The notes under the pieces: model-generated
Seen by the model: the letters and a program-made list of their open reading frames with translations, nothing else
Told to the model about the DNA's origin: nothing
Databases searched by the model: none
Assembly: GCA_043825215.1 (NCBI GenBank)
Contig: JBDRSD010000039.1
Location: forward strand, 14,302 to 78,301
From: Nanobdellota archaeon
Lineage (GTDB): Archaea; Nanobdellota; Nanobdellia; Woesearchaeales; JAHJEM01
Direction of reading: 5' to 3'
DNA: 64,000 nucleotides
Translations under genes and position numbers: made by a program
Shown here: piece by piece, positions 1-35,500 of the stretch
Layout of the letters: every line of letters starts with the position of its first letter
Position numbering within the stretch: position 1 is the stretch's first letter

Positions 1-3000
1 CGAGATATTATTATACGGGCAACTAAAAGCCAGCCCGTCATCAAGGATTCCCCCATACCCATACATCCCCACATCGATAGGACTGTTTCCGGCATTGATG
101 ATCGCAACACCAATCTCGGGAGTTATATCAAACGAGGACACATTCCCATAAACGATGCCAGTCACATTCACATCAATCGCATACAAGGGAAGGATGGTGA
201 AATTGATACTGATATTTGAAGAGTTCTCTCCTTCATCCTCAGCATACGCAGTAAACGTCCAGGTCCCATTATTCGCAAAAAACCAGACATCAAACTGGCA
301 GGTAGCATTAATTGATGAGTTTGTCTCATTAGCTATTGTGCAATTGGTCGCATAATGATTCGTCTCATTATCATCTGCATAATATGTGGTGTTGCCAAAG
401 TGCCAGATAGTCCCATTCACGATAGCAATATCAGCAAAGCCGTTGTTATCACTGAAGATTGCACTGAAATTGATTGACAACTGCATGCCTCCAAGCAGAT
501 CCACCTGAGCTGATCCACCAGCGCTCCCTCCCTCTGGCGGGGTGTTATTGACTTCCAAACCTGATACCACGGTAATATTATCATACCATGCCAAGGGACC
601 TGTGATGATGAGCGTCCTGTTCTCAACTGAGAATGATCCTAAACCCTGGGAGTCATTGCATTCCACATTCCAGATAATACTGAGATTCAGAGGCAAGTCA
701 TTGACCACAAATGAGTGCATTCCTGCAGAGATAGGCAGGGTCTGGTTTGGTGAAAAGACTCCTGAAAAATTCGCATACAGCGTGCATGTGCTCACATCCT
801 CATCAACCACCTCATAGATGAATGTCACATTGCCATCAGGATCATTATCCCCCTCAAGCGGCTTCCAGAGCGTCACGACAGGGGGTTGATTCCACAGAAT
901 ATAATTATAGATGCTTGTTGAATTCCTATAATTCCCAAATGAATCATACGCGACAACCATCCAATAATACACGGTGTTGTACACAAGAGAGCCGGTCATG
1001 GTAAATGAGGTGTTTGCCACAGGAAATGTCACATACGTGAAATCAGGCGACGGAAACTGTGCAGAAGTATCAATCAGCAGGGTATAATTCTGGAAATCAG
1101 GATCAGACGTCTGCTGCCAAAAAAATGTGGGCGTGCGAGTGGTGGTATTGGAATTGTTCATCGGAGAGAGCAGATCAAAAGGAGCAGGCCTGCTCTCGAC
1201 GACCGAGAATGAGAGATTGAACCTGGTCTCGACAGTCGGTTTCCCATAGGAATCAACCGCATACAGCTGCGTCACATTATAGACGCCAAGATCACCTGTC
1301 TCGTCAACATCCACTGTATATATATTCCCGGACAAAGAGAGCGAGAGGTTCCTCACAGTCCCATTCGGATAACGGACAGCGACAGAGGCAGAGCCCACAC
1401 CGAAAGATTCCGTGATGGTCACATTGAGCCGGACAGTCCGGGACTGGTTGATCCCGCTCAGGTTGAATGACGGATTGGAGAAGACCGGCCCGTGCGTATT
1501 GATTCCCACAGTAAAGTTCTCAGAGATATTCGTATTATTTTCCTCGTCATAACAACGGACAGCCCAGGAATACCATGCATCCTCGATATCTCCCACAGTA
1601 AAATTCTTCTTCGTACTCAAGGGCACATCCCAGATGGTCGAGAGATTCCCGAACGTGCCTGAAAAATTCGCATACAAGGTACAGTTCTTCGCCTTGAAGT
1701 TCGAGTTGTCATACACGCTGAAATTAAACCATACCGGAGTCGAGCCAACCACGCTCACATTGCCAGGCTCAAGCAGGGTTATCGTCGGAGGGGTTGTGTC
1801 TGGAACAAGCGAAAATGCATTTGCAGCAGATCCGTCATTGAAACCTGATGCAGTCACCTTGGAGACGACAGAATAGTTCCCAAACGACCAATTGAGCGTG
1901 CTTACCGTGAAACTGTCCTGTCCAGAGTAGACGTCTGTTGTATTCCTGTGGAAATAGATAAGGGATTGTTCAACGCTGGAAATGCTCGTGCCCGGAAGCA
2001 ACGGGAGGTATTTCCTTACGCGAAGATTGTCCCACCAAGTGGTATAACCCGCGCCCAATCCATCTCCGATGAAGCCGATGAAGCCGCCATTGTTCGTGAA
2101 CGTGTAGGCACCACCGCACGCTGCATCATTGATATATCCTCTTGCAGTAGTTGCATTTATGAGCAGGGTGAAATTATACCACGTGTTTGTCGCGATGTTG
2201 CTGCAGGTCTGCGACGGAACGCTCCATGATGTCCAGGACGCAGCAGCGCCTACTCCCGCATTATTTCCTCCACGTGTCTCTGCCCTGAAATGCTGGCCAC
2301 TCCCTGCTGCATTCACCAAGAAATAGAGGTTACCCAGGCCATCGCTCCTTACCCCAAAATCCAAAACCCTATTCGTCGTAAGGGATATGTCCCTGTACAT
2401 GTAATTGCCATTGACTGACGTTGCATAATAGCTCGGCGCAGGCAATCCCTGGGAAAATGTCTGGCCAGAAGTACCCACAAGAGTCCAGCTGCCCACAGCG
2501 CTTCCCGTATCGAAATACTCAAAGACATCTGCTCCTGACGTACCTGCAGACGCAGACGAATTTCCATAATACAGATAGACGGCAGTCGTTGAAAAAGCAG
2601 AGAAATTCCCCTTTATCCATACCTTTGTCTTGGCAGAATTGCAATCAGCCTCTATCCAGTAAGGAATCGGGTTGGCAGAGACATCTGCAAAACGCAAGTC
2701 ATCGCAATCCGACTGCAGCTTTCCTGCTGCAACCAATGCTGATGTATCTATTGTCATGTTGGCCTGAAAATCGGTCAGGTTGGAATTGTTCTTTTCAGTG
2801 ACATTCAAAAGGCGCCGATAGGGCCAGGATGCATTCCACCACGGGCTCTCAGTGGTTGTCTGGTTGGTAAAGACTACTGCCGTTGCTGCATTCCCGCTGA
2901 CGGGATTTCCAAAACTGTCCTTCACAGATAATGAGATAGATACGTTTTCACCCCGTTCATACTCAGATTCAGATAAATTAATTGAGACATTCAAAGTTGT

Positions 3001-6000
3001 TGTCTCCATAACCTTGAAAGTTCGTATATCAGTTCCATTCCTGTTATGTGCTGCATCTGAACAATTCACCTGCCATGAATAAGATCCATCATCAAAATCG
3101 ACCACAAAGGTCTGTGTTGTCAGTTTTTGGACTGAAGTATTTGTATTATTAATAGTTCCATTGATCAAGAGAGAGCAATTCGAGATAGAACTTGAGTCAT
3201 TGACATTATATTGAAAGGTTACAGTAACACTTCCAAGAGTCGCATTATCTGCAGGGAAACTCAGATTGATCGTCGGAGGGGCAGTATCATTCACCTGCAA
3301 GAAATGTGTCTCATAACTCGAAGTATAATTCTGCGTCGCGTTATACAACGCTGTTATATTAAAAACAGCCGGATCAAAATAATAACTCAGGTTTGTCAAC
3401 GGGGAGCTCCCTGAACCAACAAGAACTCCATTCACAAATAGATTAACACCTCCATTGGGAGGAGTTACCATCTTTACCGAATGATTCACCAGCGCTCCCT
3501 CTGGCACACTCACATTTGAGTCTAAACCGTTAATGTCCAGATTCACAACAGATGCTGCTTTACCAACCGTGTGGGCAAATATTTGGGTCTTATTAGCATT
3601 CCCTTGCGAATCATTACTATACCACTTGAAGGCATATATGCCAACAGCAGAATCAGTAATATTCACCATGTAGACGGCACCCCCCTGAGCAGGAGTTGAA
3701 TTTACAGTGGAACCTGAAAAATTGCTTTCAAACATTACACTGTTTACACCGAAATTATCATTCAACGTCGCATTGAACTGAATGTTCCCCTCTGGAACAT
3801 ATGTTGATGGAGATGTTGGATACCTAGACGTATTCAATACAATGGGAGGAGCAGTATCTACCTTGGTCGTATAATTTGAGAGAGCAAAACTTTTTCGTCC
3901 AGATGAATCAAAGCAGCGTACATTCCACAAATATGTACCATCAGACAAGTTCTTAGTAAAAGTATTCGACACTCCATTTGTGGGTGTAGAATTCGTCTCA
4001 TTTAAAATAAATGCTCCTGTGAAATTTGCATAAAAAGAGCAATTCACAAGGTTTGTATCATTGGGCAGGTACGAGAACACGACAACCGATGAATTGGAGA
4101 AAGAATCATGCGAAGGAGCTATTAGAGTTATGTTTGGATCTGTCATGTCCACGGTAAAGTTTCTCGCGCTTGACGTGCCCAGGTTGTATTCCGTGCTGTT
4201 GTCATAACATGCGACTGACCAATTGTGCTTGCCCTCAGACAGATTAAAGATGTTGAAATAATTAAAGGCCAGATTTGTTATGTTGGCATCGCTCATATTC
4301 AATACATCATCAATATACAAAGAGCAGTTGTTGATTCCCGTCGCATCGCCAGGGGTATAATTGAAAGAGAGGTTTTCGTAAGGCAGGAAAGACTCAGCGC
4401 CAGGCCAGTTCGGGGTGATCAGAGGGGGATCTGAATCCACCACGCTCACCGACAGGTTGAAGAGGTCTGATGAGCCTTCAAGCCCGTTCTGGTCAGTGCA
4501 GTTGACCATCCAGGTATGGGTACCGTTCAGCACAAGCTCAGTGAACGTGAATGCCACATCATCAGTTATGGCATATTTGACCTGCTTTGATTCGTTGTCA
4601 ATGATGAGTTCGCAAGAGCTCACGTTGGCAAGCACATCGCTTGCGTTTGCCGTGAAGTTGATGTTGTTCGTCACAGTCTCAAACGTGCCATTATCAGGAG
4701 ACATAAGATGCACGCTTGGCCCTGTCAGATCCACAATCACCGTGTAATTTGTCCCGGCAGACCCTGAATTGCCAGCAGTATCATTGCATCTGACATTCCA
4801 ATGAGTCGCACCCTCTTCCAAGGTCGCATTAAAAAAATTCGGCTGGCTCTTATTTATTGATGAATTTGTTTGATTCGCAATCCAAGGACCTGTCGCATTC
4901 GTGTAGAAGGTACAGTTTGTAATCGTGTTCATATCTGACGGCGTATAATTGAAGGTGACTGACTGGGAGGTCGTAAATCCAAAGTCAGAGGGATTGTTAA
5001 GCGCCACCGACGGGGAAGTTAGATCCGTAATATACGAGTATACTGATGATGAATTCTTTGCATTGCCAAAAACGTCATATGCAATAACCTTCCAATAATA
5101 GGTGCTGTCAGGATCAACAGGCGCTTCCACAACTTTCGACGTGTTCGTGACCGCATAGGTCGCATAGGTGAAGTCAGGGCTTCCGAACAGGGAATCCTTG
5201 TCGAGGAGAAGCGTGTAATTCGCAAAAAGGGTGTCAGAGGACTCCTCCCATGTCATGTTCGGAAGCAGATTTGTCGTTTCTATCGTGTCAGGAGGAGACA
5301 GGAGATCAAAATCAGCAGGGGGTGATGCAGACACGTTGAAGGTCAGGTTCGAAAGCGGGGTATCGTTGACATTACCTGCATGGTCCTGAGCAATGACATG
5401 GGTGACATTATAGGTGCCGGTCATGTTCGTGTCACTCATCTCCAAGTACCAAGACGTGCCAGAGCCTCGAGAGAGAGTCCTGTTCACAACACTCCCATTC
5501 GGATATTTCAAACTTATCAGCCCTGAGATGAGGATGGTGTTGTCAGATAGCGAGACAGAGAAATGAACAGGCTCTGACTGGTTGATGAGCGACGTGTTCA
5601 GCGCAGGTCCTGTGACGACCGGCTTCTGCGTGTCGTTAATGATCGTGATGTTCAGGATCCCTGATTCAGTCCTGTCCACTGACTCATTAGCAGACACGAA
5701 CACCTGCCACGAGCTGTTATAATTCCCTGTCGAATTCACCGCCCAGACGACGAGACAATAGTCTCCTGCAGTCATGTTCCCAAGACAAGCATGCGTTGTC
5801 CAATTGGCAGGATTTGCCTGGGAGGTAAAAAATGGCGAGCCAGAACCGGTCTGCACGATCTCTTTTTGCACAAGGCGCTCCTCTGCTCCGATCACATACG
5901 TCGGCTCAGGAGACGCATATTTCCTGACCCGCACATCATCATACCGCGTAAAGGAGCCATAATGGTTCTGCAGGGAAATCTCCCCTGCTGCAGTATATTG

Positions 6001-7038
6001 CGAATCTGAGCAGGTTTTCGTGAGACTTCCTGTAAGTATTGTGAAGGTCGAACCGGTGATGGTCATCCTGAAGTCAAGCCAGGTGCTTATTGCGGGAGGG
6101 GTTCCGGATGCAGTGCATGACGGGAGAAAATTCCAACCAGAATAAGGAGGCTTGAGATGGGAAAGACCCTGACCTCCCCGCGCATCAATTCTTGATTTAT
6201 ATCCGGTATTCCCTGCATAAGAGCCTCTAAAGCCCAACTCCCCTATTGCATCAGCACTCAGAAAATACTTTCCCTCGATTATCCCGTCAACAAATCCAGT
6301 GTATGTCGCATTCGTACCAAGCGCAGTATGCCCATACGGAGAGGATGTCGAGCCTCCGCCTGCGACCATGTATTGGTTCTCGATTCTCGGATAGACCCCT
6401 GAGGTCTTATGCCTTGTCCACTTGGAAAGGTCTCCATTGAAGTCATCAAAAAATACGAAAGTCGCAGAGCCGTTGGTCAGCGGGGTGGCACTTTTATTTC
6501 CATAGTACACATAAATCGCGCTTGGAGTTGTCGTGATATTCTTATCAACCTCAACCCAAAGAGTGATATTCTGTCCGGCAACAGAGCAATTCTCAACCCA
6601 ATAATCCAGAAGGGACACATCTGACCCATTAATGATCCGAAGTCTTGAGGAATTGGCATTGACGCATTCATCAGACCAGTTCCAACTCGATCCGACATTG
6701 GACTGATTGAGGATGATCTTGACCTGATAGTCGCCAGGGGTCGTTCCTGAGGAAACGCTCAGATTTACCTGCTGGCGATACGGCCAGGAGGTGTTCCACC
6801 ACACAGGTGCATTCAGGGCAGCAGTGACATTCCCGCACGAACCTGTTTGACAGGAGATATTTGCTGTGACATTGAATATGAATCCTTTGGAAACATTAAA
6901 ATCAGTGGTTGGATCGGTGGACACGTCCATTCCTGCAGCAAGCAACAGGTTGCATAATACAGCTATCGCAGCCACAATGAAAATCCAATTCACTCTCGTG
7001 GTGACGCCTTTCTTCTCTATCTTTTCATCTTTCTTCAT
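1..7038 (-). CDS. Giant exported surface protein, N-terminal >=2345 aa. The C-terminus lies beyond the left window edge. It has a signal peptide, a DUF2341-like domain and a ConA/LamG-like region.
   Basis: The ATG at 7038 on the minus strand reads MKKDEKIEKKGVTTRVNWIFIVAAIAVLCNLLLAAG..., a hydrophobic signal/anchor. I translated 6361..7038 by hand: ...APVWWNTSWPYRQQVNLSVSSGTTPGDYQVKIILNQS...SSRLRIINGSDVSLLDYWVENCSVAGQNITLWVEVDKNITTTPSAIYVYYGNKSATPLTNGSATFVFFDDFNGDLSKW. The ORF track lists no minus ORF ending near 7038, so the frame is open to position 1. No other frame in 1..7035 has an ORF longer than 91 aa. Confidence 0.75.
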   Translation of the reverse strand, partial: MKKDEKIEKKGVTTRVNWIFIVAAIAVLCNLLLAAGMDVSTDPTTDFNVSKGFIFNVTANISCQTGSCGNVTAALNAPVWWNTSWPYRQQVNLSVSSGTTPGDYQVKIILNQSNVGSSWNWSDECVNANSSRLRIINGSDVSLLDYWVENCSVAGQNITLWVEVDKNITTTPSAIYVYYGNKSATPLTNGSATFVFFDDFNGDLSKWTRHKTSGVYPRIENQYMVAGGGSTSSPYGHTALGTNATYTGFVDGIIEGKYFLSADAIGELGFRGSYAGNTGYKSRIDARGGQGLSHLKPPYSGWNFLPSCTASGTPPAISTWLDFRMTITGSTFTILTGSLTKTCSDSQYTAAGEISLQNHYGSFTRYDDVRVRKYASPEPTYVIGAEERLVQKEIVQTGSGSPFFTSQANPANWTTHACLGNMTAGDYCLVVWAVNSTGNYNSSWQVFVSANESVDRTESGILNITIINDTQKPVVTGPALNTSLINQSEPVHFSVSLSDNTILISGLISLKYPNGSVVNRTLSRGSGTSWYLEMSDTNMTGTYNVTHVIAQDHAGNVNDTPLSNLTFNVSASPPADFDLLSPPDTIETTNLLPNMTWEESSDTLFANYTLLLDKDSLFGSPDFTYATYAVTNTSKVVEAPVDPDSTYYWKVIAYDVFGNAKNSSSVYSYITDLTSPSVALNNPSDFGFTTSQSVTFNYTPSDMNTITNCTFYTNATGPWIANQTNSSINKSQPNFFNATLEEGATHWNVRCNDTAGNSGSAGTNYTVIVDLTGPSVHLMSPDNGTFETVTNNINFTANASDVLANVSSCELIIDNESKQVKYAITDDVAFTFTELVLNGTHTWMVNCTDQNGLEGSSDLFNLSVSVVDSDPPLITPNWPGAESFLPYENLSFNYTPGDATGINNCSLYIDDVLNMSDANITNLAFNYFNIFNLSEGKHNWSVACYDNSTEYNLGTSSARNFTVDMTDPNITLIAPSHDSFSNSSVVVFSYLPNDTNLVNCSFYANFTGAFILNETNSTPTNGVSNTFTKNLSDGTYLWNVRCFDSSGRKSFALSNYTTKVDTAPPIVLNTSRYPTSPSTYVPEGNIQFNATLNDNFGVNSVMFESNFSGSTVNSTPAQGGAVYMVNITDSAVGIYAFKWYSNDSQGNANKTQIFAHTVGKAASVVNLDINGLDSNVSVPEGALVNHSVKMVTPPNGGVNLFVNGVLVGSGSSPLTNLSYYFDPAVFNITALYNATQNYTSSYETHFLQVNDTAPPTINLSFPADNATLGSVTVTFQYNVNDSSSISNCSLLINGTINNTNTSVQKLTTQTFVVDFDDGSYSWQVNCSDAAHNRNGTDIRTFKVMETTTLNVSINLSESEYERGENVSISLSVKDSFGNPVSGNAATAVVFTNQTTTESPWWNASWPYRRLLNVTEKNNSNLTDFQANMTIDTSALVAAGKLQSDCDDLRFADVSANPIPYWIEADCNSAKTKVWIKGNFSAFSTTAVYLYYGNSSASAGTSGADVFEYFDTGSAVGSWTLVGTSGQTFSQGLPAPSYYATSVNGNYMYRDISLTTNRVLDFGVRSDGLGNLYFLVNAAGSGQHFRAETRGGNNAGVGAAASWTSWSVPSQTCSNIATNTWYNFTLLINATTARGYINDAACGGAYTFTNNGGFIGFIGDGLGAGYTTWWDNLRVRKYLPLLPGTSISSVEQSLIYFHRNTTDVYSGQDSFTVSTLNWSFGNYSVVSKVTASGFNDGSAANAFSLVPDTTPPTITLLEPGNVSVVGSTPVWFNFSVYDNSNFKAKNCTLYANFSGTFGNLSTIWDVPLSTKKNFTVGDIEDAWYSWAVRCYDEENNTNISENFTVGINTHGPVFSNPSFNLSGINQSRTVRLNVTITESFGVGSASVAVRYPNGTVRNLSLSLSGNIYTVDVDETGDLGVYNVTQLYAVDSYGKPTVETRFNLSFSVVESRPAPFDLLSPMNNSNTTTRTPTFFWQQTSDPDFQNYTLLIDTSAQFPSPDFTYVTFPVANTSFTMTGSLVYNTVYYWMVVAYDSFGNYRNSTSIYNYILWNQPPVVTLWKPLEGDNDPDGNVTFIYEVVDEDVSTCTLYANFSGVFSPNQTLPISAGMHSFVVNDLPLNLSIIWNVECNDSQGLGSFSVENRTLIITGPLAWYDNITVVSGLEVNNTPPEGGSAGGSAQVDLLGGMQLSINFSAIFSDNNGFADIAIVNGTIWHFGNTTYYADDNETNHYATNCTIANETNSSINATCQFDVWFFANNGTWTFTAYAEDEGENSSNISINFTILPLYAIDVNVTGIVYGNVSSFDITPEIGVAIINAGNSPIDVGMYGYGGILDDGLAFSCPYNNIS

Positions 7039-7550
7039 TGTCTATCTGCGAAATACATGTATATGTATTGCTGGATGCTCCTTATCCCAACCATCTCCTC
7101 TATCTCACCCACTGGCACTTTGGCCTTGAATGCGTTGATGATAAAGGAATGCCGAAATACCCGCGGGTTGAGGGGTATGCCTATGATCCTTTCCGTATGA
7201 TGCCTCACTATTTGCTGGATCCTCCTCTCAGTCATCTGTTTTGACTGCCTTGTGGACAGCAGATAATCAGACCTTTTCAGCGAGCATTCCCTGATATGAT
7301 CAAGAACCTGAACCATCAGCTCTTTTGGCAGCAGGATCTTTCTACTCTTTTTATTCTTCGTAATTTTTGCAGGAACAATCAATGCATCATTTTCCATATC
7401 AAACTCCCCGACACGAAGAGTTGCCATTTCATGGACAGTCATACCCGTCCTTAAGAAGAGCAGGAAGAGGAGCCTGTGCTGGGGATCCTCGATTCCTGAG
7501 ATGAGCGCGTACTCGTCAATACTCGATAAGGCCTTAATTGTCACTGTCAA
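7035..7550 (-). CDS. Tyrosine recombinase (phage-integrase/Xer family). Only the catalytic domain is present, 171 aa.
   Basis: HRLLFLLFLRTGMTVHEMATLRVGEF matches box I with the Arg. LNPRVFRHSFIINAF...MVGIRSIQQYIYMY matches box II with the RH motif and a terminal Tyr nucleophile. There is no room upstream for an N-terminal core-binding domain. Its TGA stop overlaps the ATG of the giant gene as ATGA at 7035..7038. Confidence 0.8.
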   Translation of the reverse strand: MTVTIKALSSIDEYALISGIEDPQHRLLFLLFLRTGMTVHEMATLRVGEFDMENDALIVPAKITKNKKSRKILLPKELMVQVLDHIRECSLKRSDYLLSTRQSKQMTERRIQQIVRHHTERIIGIPLNPRVFRHSFIINAFKAKVPVGEIEEMVGIRSIQQYIYMYFADRQ

Positions 7551-7559
7551 TAGTCCTCA

Positions 7560-7625
7560 GTTTCGTATTTACTATGAATACGCCTATTTATAAAGGTTAT
7601 CTTTTAAGACGAGGGTTTCGTATTT
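7560..7625 (+). promoter_or_regulatory. Two direct copies of GTTTCGTATTT (7560..7570 and 7615..7625) bracketing the TATA box
   Basis: Exact 11-bp direct repeat spaced 55 bp apart. The same core TTCGTAT recurs at other promoters in the window. Confidence 0.5.
7587..7594 (-). promoter_or_regulatory. TATA box (TTTATAAA) about 37-44 bp upstream of the recombinase start codon
   Basis: AT-rich palindromic TATA element in the 133-bp gap 7551..7683. A TTTCGTATTT motif copy lies on each side of it. Confidence 0.45.
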
Positions 7626-7683
7626 GTATCAATTACGTAATAATTTCAATATTTCAACTACGTCCAGTGACATCACGAAAGGA

Positions 7684-9264
7684 TCAGCTCTGCACAAGAC
7701 TCACGACGACAAAACCGGAGCAGTTGCCCTTCTGCGGCTTTGGCACCCCCATCTTCCAATACACATCCCTCGTCGGAGAAAAGGTATCATTCTTCGGCTC
7801 AAGGTTGAAGGAATCAAGCTGCACAGCGGTTGCTGTCAAAGAGGTCATCAGGGAATACAGAAGTCCCCCACTCAAGGAATACCGCTCATAGCCAATAGAA
7901 ATGTTTCCCTCATCGCAAGCCATGGAGAGCCCGTCACCTTCACTTGCCCCATATCCGAACAATGCCACATCCATCTCACCATTTCCCACGTTCTCAATCG
8001 TTATGGCAGAATCTGCTGTCGAGTTCTCTCCAGGATTCAACACGCCATAATCAATAATAAGAGGCGTTATGTTCATCCCGAAGATAGTGCTCACATTCAC
8101 GACTGAATGATTGAAACCAGTCGTCCCGTTCATGTCCACAGCTGTCGCATTGCACGCCCACTCACCAGGAACAGCATAATACCAGACAGAAAAGCCACAG
8201 GTATAATTCCTATACCCACCTCCCTCATAGATTGAATCACAGCTCGCATTCGAAAGGTGAAGAGAACTCTCATCAGGAGCACCATTAGACGAAGAAGAAT
8301 GATACAGGCTTGCCTGCACATTGACTAGATCACCTAAACCGTCCAGGTCAGTCACACTCGCATTGCACTCGACCTGCACAATATCACCGAGGGAAGGAAC
8401 AACGACCGGCAGGCTAGTCACTGAAAGGACCTCTGGCTCCCGATTGGCATCAATTGCCACATAGTTCCTGCCCGCGTCAGACCAGATATCATTGCTATCT
8501 GTACAATTCACCAACCAAAAATACTCCTTGTTCTCCAGCGTCACATTGAACGTATTCAGACGATCTTTGTCAGGATAGCTCTGGGAACTGTTGAAAGAAT
8601 CATTCAAGTACAAATCACAAGACACAATCGTCGAATTGTCCGAGACAGTATAATTGAAAAGGACAGCGCTTGACAATTCCCAGACAGAATTGTTCTGAGG
8701 AGAAACTGCGGAAACTAATGGAATCTCATCATCAAGACCTACCACTACACGTACCTCGTACACATGCATCACCGCACCATCAGGAACAGAATCATTAAGA
8801 CCAGCAATGATGATCTTCAGTTTTTCCATGATCTCACTCCACACCCACACACCATTTCCGTGCTCTGTGAGATTTGACAAGGTAAGATTCTGCCTGACGA
8901 CATTCTCTGCAGAAAACAGCCTCAGATCATACTGCGTTGTGCCATTATCATCAGAATACCTGATCGCCCAGCGATCATCAGTGATGCCTGACACCTCCAG
9001 ATCAATAACCAAATTGACGACATACAATGGCTCCGCATCCGGATGGGAAGAGATGTTGAAATTAAAAAAAGTGAGATTTCCATCGCTCAGGTTGATATGG
9101 GCAAAGGTAGAATAATCCTCGTCGAATGCATTCGCCTGGTCACTTGAATTGATTGTGGCATCAAACCCCCGGGGATGAGAAGGAAGCTGGCTTCCTGACA
9201 CAAGACCCAAAGACAGGAGAAAGAGTGCAAGAAAGATATGAACATTCTTCTGGCCCATCTTCAC
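7684..9264 (-). CDS. Secreted glycoprotein-like protein, 526 aa. Its C-terminus shares a YWK...VP.P..G.C.G.VV motif with the 312-aa and 303-aa proteins.
   Basis: Signal peptide MKMGQKNVHIFLALFLLSLGLVSGS. Very many NxS/T sequons. C-terminus DVYWKMGVPKPQKGNCSGFVVV. It lies 4 nt downstream of the preceding gene. Confidence 0.7.
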   Translation of the reverse strand: MKMGQKNVHIFLALFLLSLGLVSGSQLPSHPRGFDATINSSDQANAFDEDYSTFAHINLSDGNLTFFNFNISSHPDAEPLYVVNLVIDLEVSGITDDRWAIRYSDDNGTTQYDLRLFSAENVVRQNLTLSNLTEHGNGVWVWSEIMEKLKIIIAGLNDSVPDGAVMHVYEVRVVVGLDDEIPLVSAVSPQNNSVWELSSAVLFNYTVSDNSTIVSCDLYLNDSFNSSQSYPDKDRLNTFNVTLENKEYFWLVNCTDSNDIWSDAGRNYVAIDANREPEVLSVTSLPVVVPSLGDIVQVECNASVTDLDGLGDLVNVQASLYHSSSSNGAPDESSLHLSNASCDSIYEGGGYRNYTCGFSVWYYAVPGEWACNATAVDMNGTTGFNHSVVNVSTIFGMNITPLIIDYGVLNPGENSTADSAITIENVGNGEMDVALFGYGASEGDGLSMACDEGNISIGYERYSLSGGLLYSLMTSLTATAVQLDSFNLEPKNDTFSPTRDVYWKMGVPKPQKGNCSGFVVVSLVQS

Positions 9265-9268
9265 CCCC

Positions 9269-14548: not shown

Positions 14549-14785
14549 CTACAGCTTCCTCTTCAGTTTTTCGAGAAGGTTCCTGTCCTTTTCGAGCGCA
14601 GCCTCTATCGCATCCTCGAAATAGCTGTTCAGTGTCGTGTCCTTCAGAACCGCGATAAGCTTTGCCTTGGTATGGACATCGTCTTTCAGTGCAATGTTGA
14701 CTCGTTTCACGTATACCCCGACTGTGCAATTGCCGCGCCGAAACGGCAAATACAAGTAAGTGATCATATCTCTGATAGAACTCAT
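14549..14785 (-). CDS. Small ribbon-helix-helix (CopG/Arc-like) DNA-binding protein, 78 aa
   Basis: VYVKRVNIALKDDVHTKAKLIAVLKDTTLNSYFEDAIEAAL fits a beta-strand followed by helix-turn-helix. It is translationally coupled to the 967-aa gene. Confidence 0.55.
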   Translation of the reverse strand: MSSIRDMITYLYLPFRRGNCTVGVYVKRVNIALKDDVHTKAKLIAVLKDTTLNSYFEDAIEAALEKDRNLLEKLKRKL

Positions 14786-18777: not shown

Positions 18778-19170
18778 TCAGGTACGCATCTTGATAACGC
18801 CCTGACATTTTTTGCTACCGCAGTTACAATTCAAATGTAGTCCAGGAACCTTTTCTCTCACATAATCTGCAGTAATTTCTTCACCTTTTCTAATCATTCT
18901 CACTGCAACATCACATCCTTCTTTTACGTAAGTATTGGAATCACAAGAGTGATTTACATATTTTCCAGGCGGCTTGAAAAGAACAAATACATTATCCTTA
19001 AGGAAGGAAACATACTTTTTTTGACTCGGGAGTAATTTATTAACTTCTTCCTTTGTCAATCTATCTGAACATGTAGACCAATCAATGACCACCTCTCCCT
19101 TCTTAAAATCCCTCCCGGCAAATACTCCTTGCCCATGGATTCTGGATTTTTTAACAACAATATCTGACAT
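18778..19170 (-). CDS. SET-domain protein-lysine methyltransferase (small archaeal-type SET, 130 aa)
   Basis: SRIHGQGVFAGRDFKKGEVV, YVNHSCDSNT (NHSC motif), EEITADY and post-SET CNCGSKKCQG. Confidence 0.85.
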   Translation of the reverse strand: MSDIVVKKSRIHGQGVFAGRDFKKGEVVIDWSTCSDRLTKEEVNKLLPSQKKYVSFLKDNVFVLFKPPGKYVNHSCDSNTYVKEGCDVAVRMIRKGEEITADYVREKVPGLHLNCNCGSKKCQGVIKMRT

Positions 19171-24473: not shown

Positions 24474-25193
24474 CTAACCAATCTCTGCAAAGAAATAATA
24501 GGTTGTCGGGCTTGACGCAAACTCATCATTGGCAAGAATCAGCTGGAAGTCATAGAGCTGGTTGTTGAAGCCATACTTATTGTTCTCAATGATTGTCGCG
24601 TAGAACAGGGAAGAGGTATCTGTCAGGAGGATCTCCTGGAAGAGCGCAGTCGGACCTGCTGCCTGACGCGTATCATTGACATAGGTTGCAATGGCAAAAC
24701 AATCGTTCTGAGGAATCGACACTGTCCCGACATAGAATGCCTTATGGAATGACGCATTGAAGGTGTTGTTCAGGCTGTCTGCGCTATCCGCATTCATATT
24801 GATTGCCGTCATCTCGCCAGACATGTCTGCTGCATCAGCACACTCTGTGAGCGCCCAATTGAGGGTTCCCGCTCGGGACGCAAATATCTCTCCTGTCACA
24901 ATCGACGGGGTCCAATCATAGATGGTGTTGTTCACAGCATCATTCAGCGTCATGATCCCGGTGACATTACCCACGTACGCCTTCCACCGCAGGGATTGCG
25001 CAGTGATATTGAGCGACATCGTCGTAAATGAACCTCCTGCTGTCGTCAATTCTGCTGCTGACTGCGGCGTGTAATTAAGGGTCTGATTATAGATGAAGTC
25101 GACACCGCTCGGAAGCGCGCTTGCCCAGGCAGACAGGGCAAGGACCATCAGGAGGGCAAGAATTCCCCATCCGGCCTGTTTCTCCTTATACAT
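24474..25193 (-). CDS. Secreted protein, family member 3. The start is refined to the internal ATG at 25193; the track ORF runs to 25283.
   Basis: MYKEKQAGWGILALLMVLALSAWASALPSG. Motifs WKAYVGNVTG, TIYDW, GEIFASR, DFQLILAND. C-terminus YYFFAEIG. The refined start removes the overlap with the upstream regulator. Confidence 0.7.
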   Translation of the reverse strand: MYKEKQAGWGILALLMVLALSAWASALPSGVDFIYNQTLNYTPQSAAELTTAGGSFTTMSLNITAQSLRWKAYVGNVTGIMTLNDAVNNTIYDWTPSIVTGEIFASRAGTLNWALTECADAADMSGEMTAINMNADSADSLNNTFNASFHKAFYVGTVSIPQNDCFAIATYVNDTRQAAGPTALFQEILLTDTSSLFYATIIENNKYGFNNQLYDFQLILANDEFASSPTTYYFFAEIG

Positions 25194-25701
25194 GTTCCCT
25201 CCCTTCAAGCTTTTTCTGCGCGCGATGATATGATGTCCAGACAGTCCTTTGGTCCTTCCTGAGGAGGGATCCCATCTCTGCATAGGAGAACCCTGCGCCC
25301 TTCAGGAAGACACAAATCGCCTCAAGAGGGCCGAGCAGACGATCTGAGAAGACAGACAAGGGAACATTCACGGCAGAGGATGCAGGGATGCCAGTTGCCC
25401 CTTGAGGAAGCTTTCTGTAGCTTGTCCAGACAGCAGCATAGCTTCTCTTGAGATGGAGCGCAATCTCATCAAACGACAGGCGCCCCACATCATGGAGATA
25501 AGCGACAAGCACCCGCAGGATGCTTGCATCAGTGAAGAAGACAGAAAGCGGGACAGACAACTCAGCCGTTTTCAGGGTGTGAGAATATCTCTGCTCATTC
25601 TGCATGGGCAATGCTATTGCGACATAGTTCTCTTCTTTTTCCTGCAGCGCCCCATCTCGCCAACTCTCAGTTGCAGTGTCATTTCGATACGTCGAATCCA
25701 C
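25186..25701 (-). CDS. Regulator with an internally duplicated HTH (sigma-70 region-4/LuxR-like), 171 aa
   Basis: Two repeats: LSVFFTDASILRVLVAYLHDVGRLSFDEIALHLKRSYAAVWTSYRKL and LSVFSDRLLGPLEAICVFLKGAGFSYAEMGSLLRKDQRTVWTSYHRAQKKL. Confidence 0.55.
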   Translation of the reverse strand: MDSTYRNDTATESWRDGALQEKEENYVAIALPMQNEQRYSHTLKTAELSVPLSVFFTDASILRVLVAYLHDVGRLSFDEIALHLKRSYAAVWTSYRKLPQGATGIPASSAVNVPLSVFSDRLLGPLEAICVFLKGAGFSYAEMGSLLRKDQRTVWTSYHRAQKKLEGREHV

Positions 25702-25705
25702 GTAA

Positions 25706-25776
25706 TTCGTATTATGTAAGTATCTGATTTAAAAAGTTTGGCTTTTTCCAAGTTATTTTTCGTATTATGTAAGTAT
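25706..25776 (+). promoter_or_regulatory. Perfect 18-bp direct repeat TTCGTATTATGTAAGTAT (25706..25723 and 25759..25776) flanking a TTTAAAAA TATA-like element
   Basis: Read from the sequence. It begins 5 bp upstream of the regulator start codon at 25701. Confidence 0.55.
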
Positions 25777-26819: not shown

Positions 26820-27704
26820 TTACTCAATCTCTACCCAGAAGTAATAGTTGGTCTGGGTGTCTTCTGTTGCTTCTGTATGACCATCTTCCATGACTAGCAT
26901 CTGGAAGTCATAGGGAGTTCCGTCAAAGCCGATAGGGTCTGATGCGTTGTTTTCGTCATTCTCGATGAACGTGACAAAGACAAGCGCATTGCTGCCACCG
27001 TCGCTTACGCTTCCGTCAGTCAGGAGGACTTCTGTGAAATCCTTTGCCTGGGAGACATTGCCTATGTATGTCCAGGTTGTCGGGCAGGTCTGTTCATGGA
27101 TCGTCACTGTTCCGACATTGAACCTTGTGTGGTTGGTCCAGTTGAAGGTCACGTTGATCGTGTCTGGATCAGTATTCAGGAGACCGAACCTGGCATTCTC
27201 TGTGCTTGCATTGATATCAGATCCAACATAGGTTCCGTTACCAACATCTGCATCCGGATCTCCAGCAGTGAAATTGAAGCAGCGGATCTGACCCCACGCA
27301 ACTGAGGAGTTTGTCGACGTGTAGATCTTTCCCTGGGGCTCTGCATCGTTCCAATTGTAGAGCGTGTTGTTCTGGGCATCCTGCAAGATGAGCTGGCCGC
27401 TGATGTTCCCATAGTAGCCCTGCCAGGATTTTGTGACGGATGTCGCGTTCAACACGAGCTCAGTCACGTTGCCTGCTTCGGCAGGAGTTGACTTGGGACT
27501 ATACGATGTGTTCAAGAGGCGCTCACTTCTTCCAACAGTGAGGGTGTGCACACCGATAGGCTCTGTCGGCTCTGCAAAGCTGAATCGCAGCACAAAACTG
27601 AGAGCCAATATTGTCAATACCACAAAACTGATGTTTTTTATCAGGTTTCGTCGAATCATTTTGATTTCACCTTTTCCACGATCCCGTCCGATAAACGAGA
27701 CCAT
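26820..27704 (-). CDS. Secreted protein, family member 5 (294 aa). An alternative start is at 27659.
   Basis: MIRRNLIKNISFVVLTILALSFVLRFSFA. Motifs WQGYYGNISG, TLYNWN, GKIYTST, DFQMLVMEDG. C-terminus YYFWVEIE. Confidence 0.75.
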   Translation of the reverse strand: MVSFIGRDRGKGEIKMIRRNLIKNISFVVLTILALSFVLRFSFAEPTEPIGVHTLTVGRSERLLNTSYSPKSTPAEAGNVTELVLNATSVTKSWQGYYGNISGQLILQDAQNNTLYNWNDAEPQGKIYTSTNSSVAWGQIRCFNFTAGDPDADVGNGTYVGSDINASTENARFGLLNTDPDTINVTFNWTNHTRFNVGTVTIHEQTCPTTWTYIGNVSQAKDFTEVLLTDGSVSDGGSNALVFVTFIENDENNASDPIGFDGTPYDFQMLVMEDGHTEATEDTQTNYYFWVEIE

Positions 27705-29545: not shown

Positions 29546-32500
29546 CTATGTCAACTCAACATAGATCGCGAACGCATCTGTTCCTGCCTTGTATGCCCGA
29601 AGGAGCGCGGGAACCTTGATCTCATAATCATACACCCCATACATGCCCGCTCCTCCAAGAGATAATTCTGTCACAAAGACCAAGTCCTCCTCATCCGAAT
29701 CATCATACTGGAGATTCACCGACGTGTCATCTGCAGTGTCCCACAGGATGCCAGACACGAATGCAGAGGTATTTGTCGAGTTGACTATGGGGACGTCAGA
29801 GATGTCTCCAGAGGAAAAATTGAATGCGCGTGTCGCGACCGGGACATCAGTGCCATTGCCCCAGACAAGTTTCACCGAATCATTGAAGCCCGCACTCGCA
29901 AGCCCGGCATCGATATCTGTGAAATCGTTTCCGACAGTCAGGTTGTTTGTGCTCCTTCCAATCGCCTGAAGACCAGAAAAGCTGAAACTGCTGTCAATAT
30001 CAGCAACAAAGAGGAAGCTATTTTCATTCACCGACGCATTCGTGAACCCAAGGAGCGAATCGTTGACGCCAAATCCGAGGATGATGTTTTTCGTCACATT
30101 GCCATAATAGAGCTGGTACAATGAGACGGACAAATTATAACTCGCATTGTTATTCTGCTCGTCAGTCTCATTCACCTCCTGCCCGGGATCGATCATGACC
30201 CATATCTCGTTCTTGCCCGGGATGAGTATATGGGACACGTTCACGACAGCCCATTCCCCTGATGCAAGGATGCCGACAGTCTGATTAGAATCGATGAGAG
30301 TCCCTCCTTGAGAAGGATTCCCAAGATAGAAGGACACATTGAACTCGCTTGTCGCGTTCGTCAATCCGGCATTGGAGATGTTTGCGAATATCGTGATGTT
30401 GTTGCCTTCGACAACCGACTCGTTTCCGAAGAAGATGTCGCTCGTGTCCATGGTGAAATCAGGTCCTGTGATGTTCAATGTGAAGTTAGCGGGAGCGAAT
30501 CCCCAGTTGCCGTCCGTGTCGCTGCAGTTCACGTTCCATGCGTAAACCCCGGAGACCATAAAGATGTCTGCGAACGTGTTGTTCGCCCCATTCACAGGAG
30601 AGGAATCGGTCTGGTTCTTGCTGAAACCGCCGTCTTTCCCGAGATACAATGCACAGGACAGCAGATTAATATCGTGTGGAGCATACGTGAAATTCACAAG
30701 GTCCTCCCCTTGCGCGTATAGGTCATGGGGAGAGACAAGGGTGATGTTCGGAGTGGTGGAATCAGGATTCAGGTTGAAAGCAGCATACCCTTTTCCCGTA
30801 TTAAAGCCTGAAGCCTGAGCAAAAGCCACTGCAGAATAATTCCCGACAGGCCACCCGAGCATCGAGAAGTTGGTGATGAGAGTCCCGTTCAGCGCGTCAG
30901 TCAGCCCCGCCTTCAGCCCGAGGAGAGTCTCCTGCGGCAATATGCCTGCTATCGGTTCATTCTCGATGAGAATCCTGATGCGGATATCATCTGTATCGAA
31001 TTGATAACCGCCATGGATGACAAACCTGTCGAATTGGACAACGCTCGGGTCTGTCCCCTGGAGGGAATCGAGGTAAGTGCGATCCGTATCATTATAGACA
31101 GTGATGTTGATCTGCGTGTTGTTCCACGTCTGCTCGATAACATACCAGGTGTTCAGGAAGAAATACGACGTAGCTGTCGTCGCGACATTTCCTGCGCTCG
31201 TTCCTCCTGAACGCTCTTCAATGCCGAATGTCCCAGAAGGGTTGACATCCGTTATCTGGAAGCCGTAGCCATTGAACCCGCTGTCAGATATCGCATATCT
31301 TGATTGTTCACCGCCAGCTTCATTCGGCCTGTTAAAGCGGTACAGCGCGACATATCCTGTGATGTTCTTCGTGAAGAGGGCGTATCCGCCGTTCGGATCG
31401 TTGTTGGTGTCCTTTCGGCCCACATAGCTTCCGCCAGCCAGCGCAAGCCCCACCTGCCCCAGGCTGTAATTGGTCCAGTCAGAGATATTCCCTTCCTCAA
31501 AATCCTCATAAAAGAAGTAGATATTGCTCTGATTTGCCGGCGGGCTTGTGACTGTGCCGTTCCCAAAATAGACGTAATACATGCTGGTATGATTATTTTC
31601 GCTTATGCCCTCCTGGAGCCTGAACCACAAGTCTGTCTGGGTTGTGTTGAATGCAGTCGTGTTGACCCGGTCGAGCTCTATGTTTGTCTGGTTGGACTCG
31701 TTGAAAAACACGATCCGAATGTCATCGCCATCAGGCTGCATCTCCGGATTGGTCGTGTTGAGCGCGATAAGCACAGTATACCCCTCCTCGAGTATGCTCG
31801 CGTTGTTGTTCGTGATGTTTATGGGGAAGCGGTAGGGATAGCTGGCATTCCACCAGGGGACTTGAGTAATGCTGTTGTTCGTAAAGATCACGCTCACTGT
31901 CGCATCGGACACGACCGGATTCCCATAGGTGTCATTCGCCATGACCCTCACGATGAGCGTATCTCCTCTCTCGTATTCTGGCAGGGATGTGTTGACGCTC
32001 ACGTTAAGGAAAGGGATGATGTTCACGACAAAATCCCGTATCCCGCTGGCACCAAGATTCCCAGGGATGTCGTAGCACCTCACCTGCCAGGAATAGCTTC
32101 CGTCTTCAAAGGGGACGGAGAACGTCTGGGTCGCATCCGTCATGATTTCCGTATCGGTCGTATTCAGCGAGCCATTGATGTAGAGGGAGCAATTGGTGAC
32201 TGCGCTTGCGTCTGCCACCTTGTACGAGAACGTGACAAGGGCTGTTCCGACTGTGCCGTTTGCCTCTGGGAAATACATCGTCAGGTTCGGGCCTGTCGTA
32301 TCGTTCACCTGAAGGAAGTGCGTGACCACCTGCCCGGTGTAATTCTGGGTTGTATTGAAGAACGCAGTGATGTTATAGGTCCCCGGATTTGAGAAAAAGG
32401 TTATGTTCTCAATGGGTGATGACCCGTTCTGGATCTCGGTGCCGTTCAAGTAGAGGTGCACAAATCCTCCCTGCGGCAGATTTGAAACCACAGTCATATT

Positions 32501-35500
32501 GACATCCTGATCCTCATTGGCCGTAAGGTTCCCTTCTGTCCCGTTGAGGTAGAGGCTGATGTTCGCCTGCGCACGATTGACAGTATAGGCGTAATTCGGG
32601 GTGCTGTTCGTGTGGCTTACTGTGTCGTTTGCGTACCAAGTATATATATAGGAGCCTGCGGAAAGCCCTTGAACCGTGAAAGAATAGATGCTGCCCGAGC
32701 CGGCCACGCTCTCATTCATCAAAGTCCCTGTGAAATTATGCTCGAGAAGGACGGCTGCGACGCCAAAGCTGTCAGTCCATGTGATGTTGAACTCGTAGAG
32801 CTGGGTTGCATTGAACGTCGCTGGTGATGCAGGAGAGGTCACATTGTTGGAATAGGCAGGAGCTGTCGTGTCCACTTTGACTGTCCGGTTGTAGTCGCCA
32901 TACTTCGTATTTCCTGCAGTGTCGTTGCACTTGATGTTCCAGAGATAATTCCCATCAGGAAGAAAAAGCGTGAAGTTGCTTGAGGCATTGCTTTGCGGCG
33001 CATCGGTCATATTCTCTGCGTAAACCCCTGAAAAATTTGCCAGGAGGGTGCACTGGTAAAGATGTGTATCATTTGCCACATAGGTGAAATTTACCATAGA
33101 GGATAATGAGAAGGTATCATTTGGCGGGCCGGCCACATCCAGGGAGGGATACGTCACATCGACCGTGAAATTTCTCCAGCCAGAGCTTCCCAGGTTGAAG
33201 TCTGTGCCATTGTCATAACAGGAGATGCTCCAATTATGGGTGCCCTCAGCAAGGCCTGCAACTGTGAAATTGTTCGCGATAAATGTCTCGACTGACGTAT
33301 TGGTCTGGTTAAGCAGGCCGTCTATGTGTATGCTGCAATTTGCGATGCCTGTCGCATCCTCTGGAGTGAAGTTGAAGTTGACATCCAGTGAGTTCTCGAA
33401 GCCATCCTGTCCAGGATGATGCAACGTGATGAGAGGCGGATCGTTATCGATGACAAGGACACTGAGATTGCTGATTTCAGACGAGTTCTCATTCCCAAGC
33501 GAGTCTGTGCAATTCACCATCCACGTGTGGTTGCCGTTCAGGACGAATCTCGTGAAGGTGAAGGGATCTCCCTCCTGGATTCCTGTCTTGGTCATTTCAA
33601 CAACGCCATCGATGATGAGCTTGCATGAGCTGATGTTCGCATAGGTATCATTCGCATTTGCCGTGAAGTTGATATTGTTGGTCGTGTTCTCGAGGGTATT
33701 GTTCGCGGGGCTTATAATCCCAATGGCGGGACCTGAGGTATCTGCAGTAAGTGTGTAGTTTCCTGACGCGAAGTTCGAATTGCCTGCAGTATCATTGCAC
33801 TGCGCATTCCAGTCAAATATTCCCTCCGGGACAGTAATGGTGAAGTTATTGACCGTGTTGTTCAGTATAGTCGTGTTGGTCGAATTCGCAAGGAACAGCC
33901 CTGAGAAATTCCCGTATAATGTACAGGAACTGAGGGTGTTGGTATCTGCAGGGGTATAGGTGAATGTGATTGAGGCATTATTGGTGATTGTCCTATGGGG
34001 TGGGCTGTTCAGGGTCACGGACGGGGCAATGGTGTCTATGATGTACTGGAACACGCTTATGGATGATGTGGAATTCCCATAGAGATTATAGGCGTTTACC
34101 CGCCAATAATACCGCGCATTCGCGTCAAGGGCATAGTCGACCTTGTAGGAGGTGTTTCCTATCGGGGATGTCTTGTAGGTATAGTCAGGGCTGCCGAAGA
34201 GAGGGTCCTTGTCCAGCTGGATCGTGTAGTTCAGGAAGTTCTTTCCTGAAGTCGCATCCCAGGTGAGGTTAGGGAGCAGGTTTTGGCTTTCAGACGCATT
34301 CACCGGCGATGAGAGATTGAACGAAGATAAGGGAGTCGCAACCGCCGTGAATGTCAGGTTGGTATAGGTGCTGTGGTTGGCCTGGCTGATGTTGTCCATG
34401 GCATAGATGTCCGTGACATTATACAATCCAAGCTGGTACGTGTCTGTCCATTCCGCCTGCCAAAGGCTTGACCTTGACTCGTGGCTTATCTCGATGACAA
34501 GGCCTGTCCAATTGATCTCGTCTATATTTGTCTCATCATAGTAATCCATGCCAGCCCCCCTGATCCTGACATCCCTGTTCGCCGACGTCAACCATGCCGT
34601 GAGGATTGCACTGTCTGTGGTTGTTGCAGAAAATGTCCCTGCTCCTGTTGCGCTGATGTTGCCTATTGTCACCCAGCCTCCCTGGTCGATGGTTGCGAGC
34701 GCCACCTCAAGGTCAGGATTGTCATTCCCGCTCATGAGCGAACCGCTTTTGTTATAGGAGGAGACGGTGACTTTCACGGTGATGTTGTTGATGCTGGCAA
34801 GGACTGTCGTGTCGATATCATCATAAGTTATCCAGGCTGTTGCGGCATCAGTCATGTTCTCGAAGATGACTGAGCTCGTATTAGGCCAGGTGATGATCCA
34901 GCAGTTGATCAACGATGGCTGGGTTGAGGATCTCGTCCTGAAATTTACCGCCCTGATGGTGCTGGTTGAGTCGAGCATGTACCCCCAGTAATCCCTCGTG
35001 TGGGCTGTGCCCCCTCCTGCTTCCATGGAATTGTCGCACGTGAGAAGGGTCCTGTTCAGGCTGCTGGCTGAAGGCGAGAACGCGCTTGTGATGTTCTGGT
35101 CAGTATATGCTGGACTTATGCGAAAGTGCTGGGTGGATGCCTGCGAGTCATTCTCGAAATTGGCCACGTATGCTGTCACCTGCGATTGCACTCCGGTAAG
35201 CCCGGTCTCTGCGACATAGAACTGGATGTTCGTGGCATTCGTGATGTTGTTGATGATCGCGTTCTGCCCAACGCCGTCATCTGCCTGGCGATGGTTATGG
35301 ATGGCAAATGAGATCGAGGTGTTCACCGGGCTCATGCTCACGTCCTGCGTGGCAGGCTCCGCGTCAGGCATGACCGTGAAAAGCTGCTGGACAACGCTTG
35401 CGTCCCTGAAGCACAAGACATCAGCGACAGTAGTTCCGGCAGCTGCAGGAGCTGTCTCAGGATCACGGTAAAAATCGATATTGTCGGCTGCCGTTATGTT

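Follow-up and report, generated by a model that had tools for sequence, protein, structure and literature searches.

MrpR (YopR), the master repressor of SPbeta in Bacillus subtilis, has the fold of a tyrosine recombinase, keeps three of the seven catalytic residues and has no recombination activity; it represses by binding a short element that is repeated in promoter regions, and its authors suggested that such recruitment may be more widespread (PMC10516654). Here we analyzed a 64-kb stretch of DNA from a Nanobdellota archaeon (contig JBDRSD010000039.1, positions 14,302 to 78,301; hereafter the window), in which an integrase-like open reading frame (ORF) encoding a catalytic domain only is followed, with overlap, by a giant gene for a secreted or surface protein. 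Judged from sequence and predicted structure, the integrase-like protein is most likely a DNA-binding switch for the giant gene rather than a DNA-cutting enzyme. We give roughly even chances to the fuller proposal that it is an exapted, inactive XerA-like domain, encoded in cis, that regulates giant surface-protein operons by binding DNA.

The window protein resembles MrpR in its recombinase fold, in the replacement of most catalytic Arg and His residues, and in a repeated promoter element, which the window protein would bind. MrpR differs in being bacterial and phage-encoded, in its length of ∼320 amino acids (aa) with both domains, and in controlling lysogeny, whereas the window protein is archaeal, consists of the catalytic domain only (in tandem in some relatives), is coupled to its presumed target gene, and is closer in sequence to XerA. 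MrpR (PDB 8bpz/8bj6) was among the fold matches of the window-protein model. PF22823 (MrpR_C_cat) did not match the window protein at E ≤ 0.01, and several relatives have weak or faint precomputed matches to it.

The best match in both sequence and structure is the archaeal chromosome-dimer resolvase XerA (PDB 4a8e, 5hxy), whose residues ∼100 to 256, the catalytic domain, are covered. Compared with XerA, the window protein lacks the N-terminal domain, has Arg-I, His-II, and His-III replaced, and belongs to a surface-protein operon rather than a dif-type system. FimB/FimE, the Xer-like proteins of the mycoplasma vsa/vpma systems, and Bacteroides Tsr are alike in that a small recombinase-family gene lies beside surface genes, with repeats around a promoter. 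The FimB/FimE-type enzymes, however, have the full catalytic set and inverted repeats that flank a segment of hundreds of bp, whereas the window has a dead site and direct repeats 55 bp apart. Short mobile-element integrases of the P0156 type (related proteins carry P numbers and loci L numbers) are homologous, of the same size, and likewise without an N-terminal domain; they differ by an intact active site and a mobile setting. The features at the gene junction, in window positions, are as follows:

7035..7550 (TTG start, 171 aa) or 7035..7544 (GTG start, 169 aa), minus strand: integrase-fold ORF, catalytic domain only (ORF reading and PF00589)
7035..7038, minus strand: ATGA overlap, with the TGA of the integrase-like ORF (7037..7035) on the ATG of the giant gene (7038..7036) (sequence reading)
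1..7038, minus strand: 5′ part of the giant secreted/surface-protein gene, at least 2345 codons, open to the window edge (ORF and domain matches)
7555..7558, minus strand: GAGG, Shine-Dalgarno-like, 4 nt before TTG 7550 and 10 nt before GTG 7544, conserved in L001
7684..9264, minus strand: 526-aa surface-protein gene with a signal peptide, Big_7-like, directly upstream of the integrase-like gene

Fold, active site, and relatives of the integrase-like protein

The NCBI annotation starts the ORF at GTG 7544 (169 aa, MFH1916354.1, "MAG: site-specific integrase [Nanoarchaeota archaeon]", on a 104-kb contig). The protein matched PF00589 (Phage_integrase) with 60.1 bits against a gathering cutoff of 27.1 (E 2.9e-16), and its AlphaFold2 model had a predicted local distance difference test score (pLDDT) of 94.4. 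The best Foldseek match was the XerA catalytic domain 5hxy, with a template modeling (TM) score of 0.83, and the top matches (XerA, IntI4, Tn1549 Int, XerH, and Cre) lay between 0.75 and 0.83. The archaeal XerA equivalog NF040815 scored 69.8 bits against a cutoff of 220, with only model positions 94 to 246 of 263 matched, and the NCBIfam model for FimB/FimE-type invertases scored 20.3 bits against a cutoff of 221. The N-terminal core-binding (SAM-like) domain is absent: neither PF02899 nor PF13495 matched in the ORF, which begins at the catalytic domain. Such a domain cannot be encoded upstream either, because an in-frame TGA lies 2 codons 5′ of TTG 7550 and the preceding gene is only 133 nt away. 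A first-pass annotation of this DNA had described a catalytic-domain-only ORF with no room upstream, and this description, like every coordinate it gave, proved correct.

Relatives were sought on two scales. A word-indexed search of 5.8 billion proteins returned a single close relative, P0002 (171 aa, 53% identity), and an exhaustive phmmer search of 1.84 billion cluster representatives returned 95 proteins at E ≤ 1e-10, in a single-domain form of ∼150 to 200 aa and a tandem two-domain form of ∼270 to 390 aa. When 162 retrieved sequences were aligned, ∼31 were canonical (R...H-x-x-R...H), and ∼70 single-domain pieces and 59 tandem proteins showed the degeneracy of the window protein. This degenerate set of about 130 sequences comprises single-domain (∼170 aa) and tandem (∼300 to 350 aa) members and has conserved ORF lengths. 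Catalytic positions were assigned by HMMER alignment to XerA and by multiple alignment with canonical Xer proteins, and are given here in the 169-aa numbering, first for the window protein and then for the degenerate family:

Arg-I (G-L-R-V-S-E): Thr36 (G-M-T-V-H-E), replaced; in the family mostly Thr, also Ser, Lys, and Asn
Glu: Glu39, kept; conserved in the family
Hairpin Lys: Lys63-66, kept
His-II: Arg128, replaced; in the family Arg, Gln, or Ser
Arg-II: Arg131, kept; ∼95% Arg in the family
His-III: Ile154, replaced; in the family Leu, Ile, or Val
Tyr nucleophile: Tyr162, kept; Tyr in 46/70 and Phe in 9/70 single-domain members, essentially lost in the first domain of tandem members

The complete catalytic set R-(E/D)-K-H-R-(H/W)-Y is not present in the alignment of the integrase-like protein. 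The nucleophile reported earlier is there, as Tyr162. The report that the protein "has box I" was mistaken, the catalytic Arg-I position being occupied by Thr36; it probably counted an Arg four residues before Thr36, which is not a catalytic position and is not conserved. Because Arg-I is missing, and because we know of no tyrosine recombinase that works without it, the family is best termed pseudo-recombinase. Its members share the signature T-R-(Q/E)-S-x-x-(M/I)-(S/T)-E-R-R-(I/V)-Q-Q-(I/L). The sole long relative, P0125 (753 aa), showed no fusion to a surface protein, and scans of metagenome, genome, and viral contig collections returned no relatives. We found no description of the degenerate family in the literature, and none that links DPANN archaea or giant genes to integrase-like regulators; the family, which comes from DPANN-type archaea, is apparently undescribed.

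Two groups of relatives deserve separate mention. In the tandem proteins (P0004-P0048 and others; L003 9800..10846, L005 8175..9134), the degenerate domain is duplicated in one chain of 270 to 390 aa, and domain 1 is without the Tyr region. The called start of the L003 protein, at 10001, cuts into the first domain, and the ORF is open from 9800. P0156 (194 aa, L006 3483..4067) is a catalytic-domain-only integrase with a fully canonical active site (R, H-x-x-R, G-H, Y); it is more distant (E 6e-19 to the family profile), has no large downstream gene, and lies in a mobile or viral-like neighborhood with HNH, RlaP, ParE, RadC, PDDEXK, and STIV_B116-like genes. It looks like a plausible ancestor type for the dead family.

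We further compared the integrase-like gene with its counterpart in L001. The gene is under purifying selection; in codons 1 to 39, for example, nonsynonymous divergence (dN) was 0.09 and synonymous divergence (dS) 1.3. Identity falls sharply after codon ∼39. Synonymous divergence is already high before that point (proportion of synonymous differences 0.62, dS ∼1.3), much as in codons 40 to 100, so that the drop reflects amino-acid constraint and is no evidence of a breakpoint. We accordingly did not accept it as a sign of an SSV-type split integrase or of a recombination junction within the gene, dS being equally high on either side of codon ∼39. Residues 9 to 39 (within 7428..7544) are identical between the window and L001 though synonymous sites are near saturation, and residues 40 to 100 have a dN/dS of ∼0.5. 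The extreme constraint on the N-terminal helices could mark a DNA-recognition or dimer surface.

Coupling to large secreted-protein genes

Gene context was readable for 11 distinct members of the degenerate subfamily, the window included. In all 11, a large co-directional gene with a signal peptide or anchor starts between −17 and +9 nt from the stop of the integrase-like gene, and 8 of the 11 junctions have a 4-nt stop/start overlap. These members are ∼30 to 53% identical to the window protein and come from contigs of 28 to 63% G+C (GC):

Window: ATGA; downstream product at least 2345 aa
P0002, L001/L002: 8-nt overlap; at least 227 aa, membrane anchor
P0030, L003 (tandem): ATGA; at least 3534 aa, CARDB/MG2
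P0031, L004: ATGA; at least 1660 aa
P0009, JGI contig: 4-nt overlap; at least 434 aa
P0048, L005 (tandem): 17-nt overlap; 931-aa Ig-like protein
P0153, L007: ATGA; 526 aa, then at least 1687 aa
P0154, L008: 9-nt gap; at least 552 aa
P0152, L009/L010: ATGA; at least 320 aa
P0073, L011/L012: ATGA; 3052 aa
P0163, L013: ATGA; at least 678 aa

No N-terminal domain is common to the downstream proteins, which share only a signal or anchor and generic Ig-like repeats. This favors control at the level of the gene over a specific protein-protein partnership. In the window, a Lys-rich stretch and a hydrophobic signal/anchor open the giant product, which contains DUF2341, the Ig-like domains Big_13, Big_7, and Big_3_3, and many N-x-S/T sequons. 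Since a stop lies 2 codons 5′ of ATG 7038 in the giant-gene frame, this ATG is the earliest possible start; the overlap with a gene of at least 2345 codons, noticed in the first-pass annotation, was confirmed as an ATGA. We read the ATGA as translational coupling of the integrase-like ORF to the giant gene. The coupling had been called unusual before, with an integrative-element remnant or a recombinase acting on the giant locus as its two possible mechanisms. It is meaningful, being conserved in all 11 readable members, whereas both mechanisms fail on the evidence set out below.

The neighborhood is conserved beyond the junction. A Big_7 protein ahead of the integrase-like gene also occurs in L011/L012 and L013, and the gene order of L011/L012 mirrors that of the window: a 51/53-aa ORF, a protein of ∼970 to 1000 aa, further on the Big_7 protein, then the integrase-like gene and the giant gene. 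The L005 member directly follows the genes for FtsZ, SecE, Spt5, and L11, and the L008 member adjoins archaellin genes; both settings are chromosomal and archaeal, not mobile.

The promoter and its boxes

The intergenic region upstream of the integrase-like gene contains the following elements:

7560..7570, minus strand: proximal box AAATACGAAAC(T), 16 nt downstream of the TATA box, at the expected transcript start
7577..7582, minus strand: inverted half-site CGTATT, facing the AATACG of the proximal box across 7 nt; weak, with 6-nt arms
7587..7594: TTTATAAA, archaeal TATA-box-like, between the two boxes
7615..7625, minus strand: distal box AAATACGAAAC, 20 nt upstream of the TATA box and 55 bp from the proximal box
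7560..7625, minus strand: constrained promoter core, 63/66 (95.5%) identical to L001

The two exact direct repeats around a TATA-like box that had been described here were recovered: the 11-nt sequence GTTTCGTATTT occurs at 7560-7570 and 7615-7625, with TTTATAAA at 7587-7594. The statistics of the 11-mer are modest, with 3 matches at ≤1 mismatch against 0.75 expected, and ≥3 matches in 5 of 100 shuffles; the repeat is convincing because it is conserved in other loci, not on these figures. The final 100 nt of intergenic sequence agree to 91% between the window and L001, compared with a third-codon-position identity of 70% in the upstream gene and 45 to 56% in the integrase-like gene (dS ∼0.7 and 1.3 to 3, respectively). 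The sole difference within the CGTATT-to-AATACG stretch falls in the 7-nt spacer. We take the 66-bp core to be a phylogenetic footprint that spans both repeats, the TATA box, and the spacers. Since an archaeal TATA box is centered near −26, the transcript is predicted to start inside the proximal repeat, with a leader of ∼20 nt that contains the GAGG. Because the boxes are direct, 55 bp apart, and placed around the TATA box, their arrangement is that of an operator rather than of a segment that could be inverted or excised.

In distant loci, too, a (T)ACGAAACT box lies close to the TATA box or to the predicted transcript start, and (T)ACGAAAC(T) boxes at one or the other were seen in the window, L001, L003, L004, L005, L009, L011, and L013. 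In L001, L003, L005, L009, and L011, the TATA-like box is similarly placed and has a CGAAACT box 16 to 27 nt downstream of it (20 to 24 nt in L003, L005, and L011); L003 and L005 have a second, inverted copy of CGAAACT. The layout of L009, whose contig is 28% GC and whose protein is ∼30% identical to that of the window, reads GTACGAAACT, 23 nt, TTTATATAAA, 27 nt, ATACGAAACT; like the window, it has TACGAAACT, TATA box, and TACGAAACT in succession, at a spacing of 65 bp. L004 has AAAATACGAAATT and AATTTCGTATTTT around the TATA box, and L013 has TTTCGTA followed by TACGAAACT. The P0153/P0154 subgroup (L007 and L008) has the variant box GRGAAACT, in four direct copies in L007; the division into ACGAAACT and GRGAAACT subgroups is a first hint of covariation between protein and box. 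Across ten loci, CGAAACT was enriched 37-fold in the 200 nt upstream of family genes (9 in 2.0 kb versus 19 in 158 kb; binomial p ∼6e-12), a figure obtained with a motif picked after inspection of the data and with the window and L001 not being independent.

Candidate roles of the integrase-like gene

Under the regulatory proposal, the ORF would be an exapted, catalytically dead archaeal XerA-type catalytic domain without a core-binding domain, and a member of this family would have become fixed as the first cistron of an operon whose second, translationally coupled cistron encodes a very large secreted or surface protein. At its own promoter, the protein would occupy the (T)ACGAAAC(T) boxes, which lie on either side of the TATA box and cover the predicted transcript start. 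It would probably do so as a dimer or in two copies, and binding would set transcription of its own gene and, through the ATGA coupling, of the giant gene. In the simplest mode, this would be negative feedback on, or ON/OFF switching of, a very costly gene, and the tandem-domain relatives would be covalent "dimers" for two-part sites. In archaea, a factor bound over the start site usually acts as a repressor, and one bound upstream of the B recognition element (BRE) can act as an activator; here we infer both the binding to the boxes and the direction of regulation.

Other small genes occupy the same position in front of surface genes, as follows:

25186..25701, minus strand: 171-aa protein with two Sigma70_r4-like helix-turn-helix (HTH) units (E 7e-7), overlapping the start of a 269-aa signal-peptide protein (24474..25283)
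14549..14710, minus strand: 53-aa ORF (VKRVNIALKDDVHTKAKLIAVLK...), its TAG directly before the ATG of a 967-aa Ig-domain protein

In L003, a 120-aa HTH protein (E 2e-11) overlaps a 2384-aa gene, and in L005, a 162-aa HTH-like protein overlaps a gene of at least 1422 aa. Since HTH genes head other large surface genes, the integrase-like protein fills a slot that is otherwise held by transcription-factor folds. A 51-aa ORF, 51% identical to the 53-aa ORF, lies upstream of a 996-aa gene in L011; a guess that the 53-aa ORF encodes a ribbon-helix-helix (RHH) protein found no support in Pfam or PDB searches. With somewhat less than even confidence, we propose more generally that DPANN archaea may have one private regulator per giant surface gene, with dead XerA-type domains reading a ACGAAACT operator alongside small HTH and RHH-like proteins.

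Several points weigh against the regulatory proposal, beyond the way in which CGAAACT was chosen. Isolated recombinase catalytic domains usually bind DNA weakly without a core-binding domain, and a pure binding role leaves the near-conservation of Tyr and Arg-II in the family unexplained. The geometry of the boxes varies among loci: direct pairs are 55 and 65 bp apart, inverted pairs 23, 37, and ∼83 bp, and L007 has four copies. The sequence ACGAAA just upstream of the TATA box resembles the organism's ordinary BRE at several other promoters, and ATACGAA pairs flank the TATA box at two more surface-gene promoters of the window, near 25.7 kb and 27.7 kb:

25706..25776, minus strand: promoter of 25186..25701, with 18-nt direct repeats ATACTTACATAATACGAA (two copies, 53 bp apart) around TTTTTAAA
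27726..27761, minus strand: TATACGAA(A/T), two copies 29 bp apart, flanking TTTATATA, upstream of 26820..27704 (294-aa surface protein)

The first of these promoters has the layout and the ATACGAA core of the integrase-like gene promoter, and the 294-aa protein is a paralogue of that encoded by 24474..25283. Of the 21 ATACGAA matches in the window, 8 fall in its 2.7 kb of intergenic DNA. The likeness to the BRE and the pairs at other surface-gene promoters leave two options: a small regulon in the window organism, perhaps one of surface genes marked by ATACGAA, or reading of the boxes by a different factor.

This second option leads to the alternative that survives best, although we consider it unlikely: a role tied to the giant product or its expression without promoter regulation, the boxes being read by another factor. 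The protein could then be an mRNA or translation coupling factor, a secretion or assembly helper, or a factor that helps with DNA topology or with transcription processivity in very long, membrane-targeted genes. Strict coupling of stop and start, seen in nearly all loci, points to some importance of the ratio or the co-production of the two products, and the BRE-like character of the box, its presence at other window promoters, and its unconserved geometry fit this alternative as well. However, the fold is one of DNA binding and processing, with no known chaperone or secretion role; the downstream proteins offer no common N-terminal domain to be recognized; HTH-type proteins hold the equivalent position before other surface genes; and the box is mostly restricted to the upstream region of the family gene itself in L003, L005, L009, L011, and L013.

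We regard as improbable that the protein is a still-active, noncanonical recombinase or invertase that uses the repeats for phase variation, cassette exchange, or repeat resolution at the giant locus, as had been suggested. In its favor, the window protein and most single-domain relatives retain Arg-II, the hairpin Lys, Glu, and Tyr, the half-sites form an inverted 6-7-6 arrangement (CGTATT-N7-AATACG, 7564-7582), and the downstream gene is wholly different between the window and L001; small recombinases beside surface genes are, moreover, a known theme (FimB/FimE, mycoplasma and Bacteroides systems). But Arg-I and His-III are absent from the entire subfamily, and Tyr gives way to Phe in some members and has disappeared from domain 1 of the tandem proteins. 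The boxes are direct repeats only 55 bp apart around the TATA box, and the inverted pairs of other loci, at 23 to 83 bp, are too close to synapse. The drop in identity to L001 is no evidence of a junction, with dS ∼1.3 to 3 along the ORF. Partner sites were not found either: by blastn, the 64-kb window contains no second copy of the integrase-like gene or its promoter, and the region 7440-8330, with its intergenic part, matched nothing relevant in the window. The inverted repeats at 5500-9500 were weak and of a sort that chance would produce, with no convincing pair bracketing the promoter. A search of the window for att-like partners of the repeats, allowing 1 mismatch in the 11-mer, gave one further match, at chance level and in coding sequence. 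This match, an inverted one-mismatch copy (CTTTCGTATTT on the minus strand, 6451..6461), lies ∼580 nt into the giant ORF.

That the gene is a now functionless, decaying integrase remnant of a mobile element that brought in the giant-gene island, the other mechanism offered earlier, is very improbable and, as we read the conservation data, already contradicted by them: the degenerate catalytic residues and the distant, intact-site relative P0156 in its mobile or viral-like setting fit decay, but against it stand intact ORF lengths across ∼130 relatives, a dN far below dS, a confident fold (pLDDT 94), synteny and overlap kept at ∼30% identity, the housekeeping context in L005, the lack of relatives in the viral contig scan, and the absence from the 64-kb window of tRNA genes, att sites, and any GC break (GC is flat at 0.45 to 0.53 across the junction; the far border of the giant gene lies beyond the window). 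The gene is catalytically decayed and without partner sites in the window, as a pseudogene would be, but a pseudogene it clearly is not.

DPANN archaea presumably contact their hosts through giant surface proteins, whose genes are very costly. For the control of such genes, a conserved, cis-encoded, coupled partner and a promoter box provide a testable handle, consisting of one small protein and one 66-bp DNA. What is new here relative to known recombinase-fold DNA-binding factors is the archaeal origin, the catalytic-domain-only or tandem form, and the obligatory translational coupling to giant surface-protein genes. If the regulatory proposal is correct, this would be the first archaeal tyrosine-recombinase catalytic domain recruited as a noncatalytic factor and the first catalytic-domain-only or tandem-domain example, extending the single well-studied case of MrpR of SPbeta; it would also allow switch-like, possibly mutually exclusive expression of host-contact proteins without DNA rearrangement. 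Family members are annotated in databases as "integrase", "site-specific integrase", or "XerC", and such labels could pass for markers of mobile elements or genomic islands.

Elsewhere in the window, two further giant ORFs, 29546..43078 (4510 aa) and 43075..63876 (6933 aa), lie back to back on the minus strand with a 4-nt overlap, and the sequence upstream of the 6933-aa ORF falls beyond the window end; together with the gene of at least 2345 codons, these two bring giant-gene coding sequence to more than half of the window. An Rfam scan gave no match. At 18778..19170 on the minus strand, a SET-domain protein of 130 aa (Pfam E 5e-12) is encoded among otherwise unannotatable genes.

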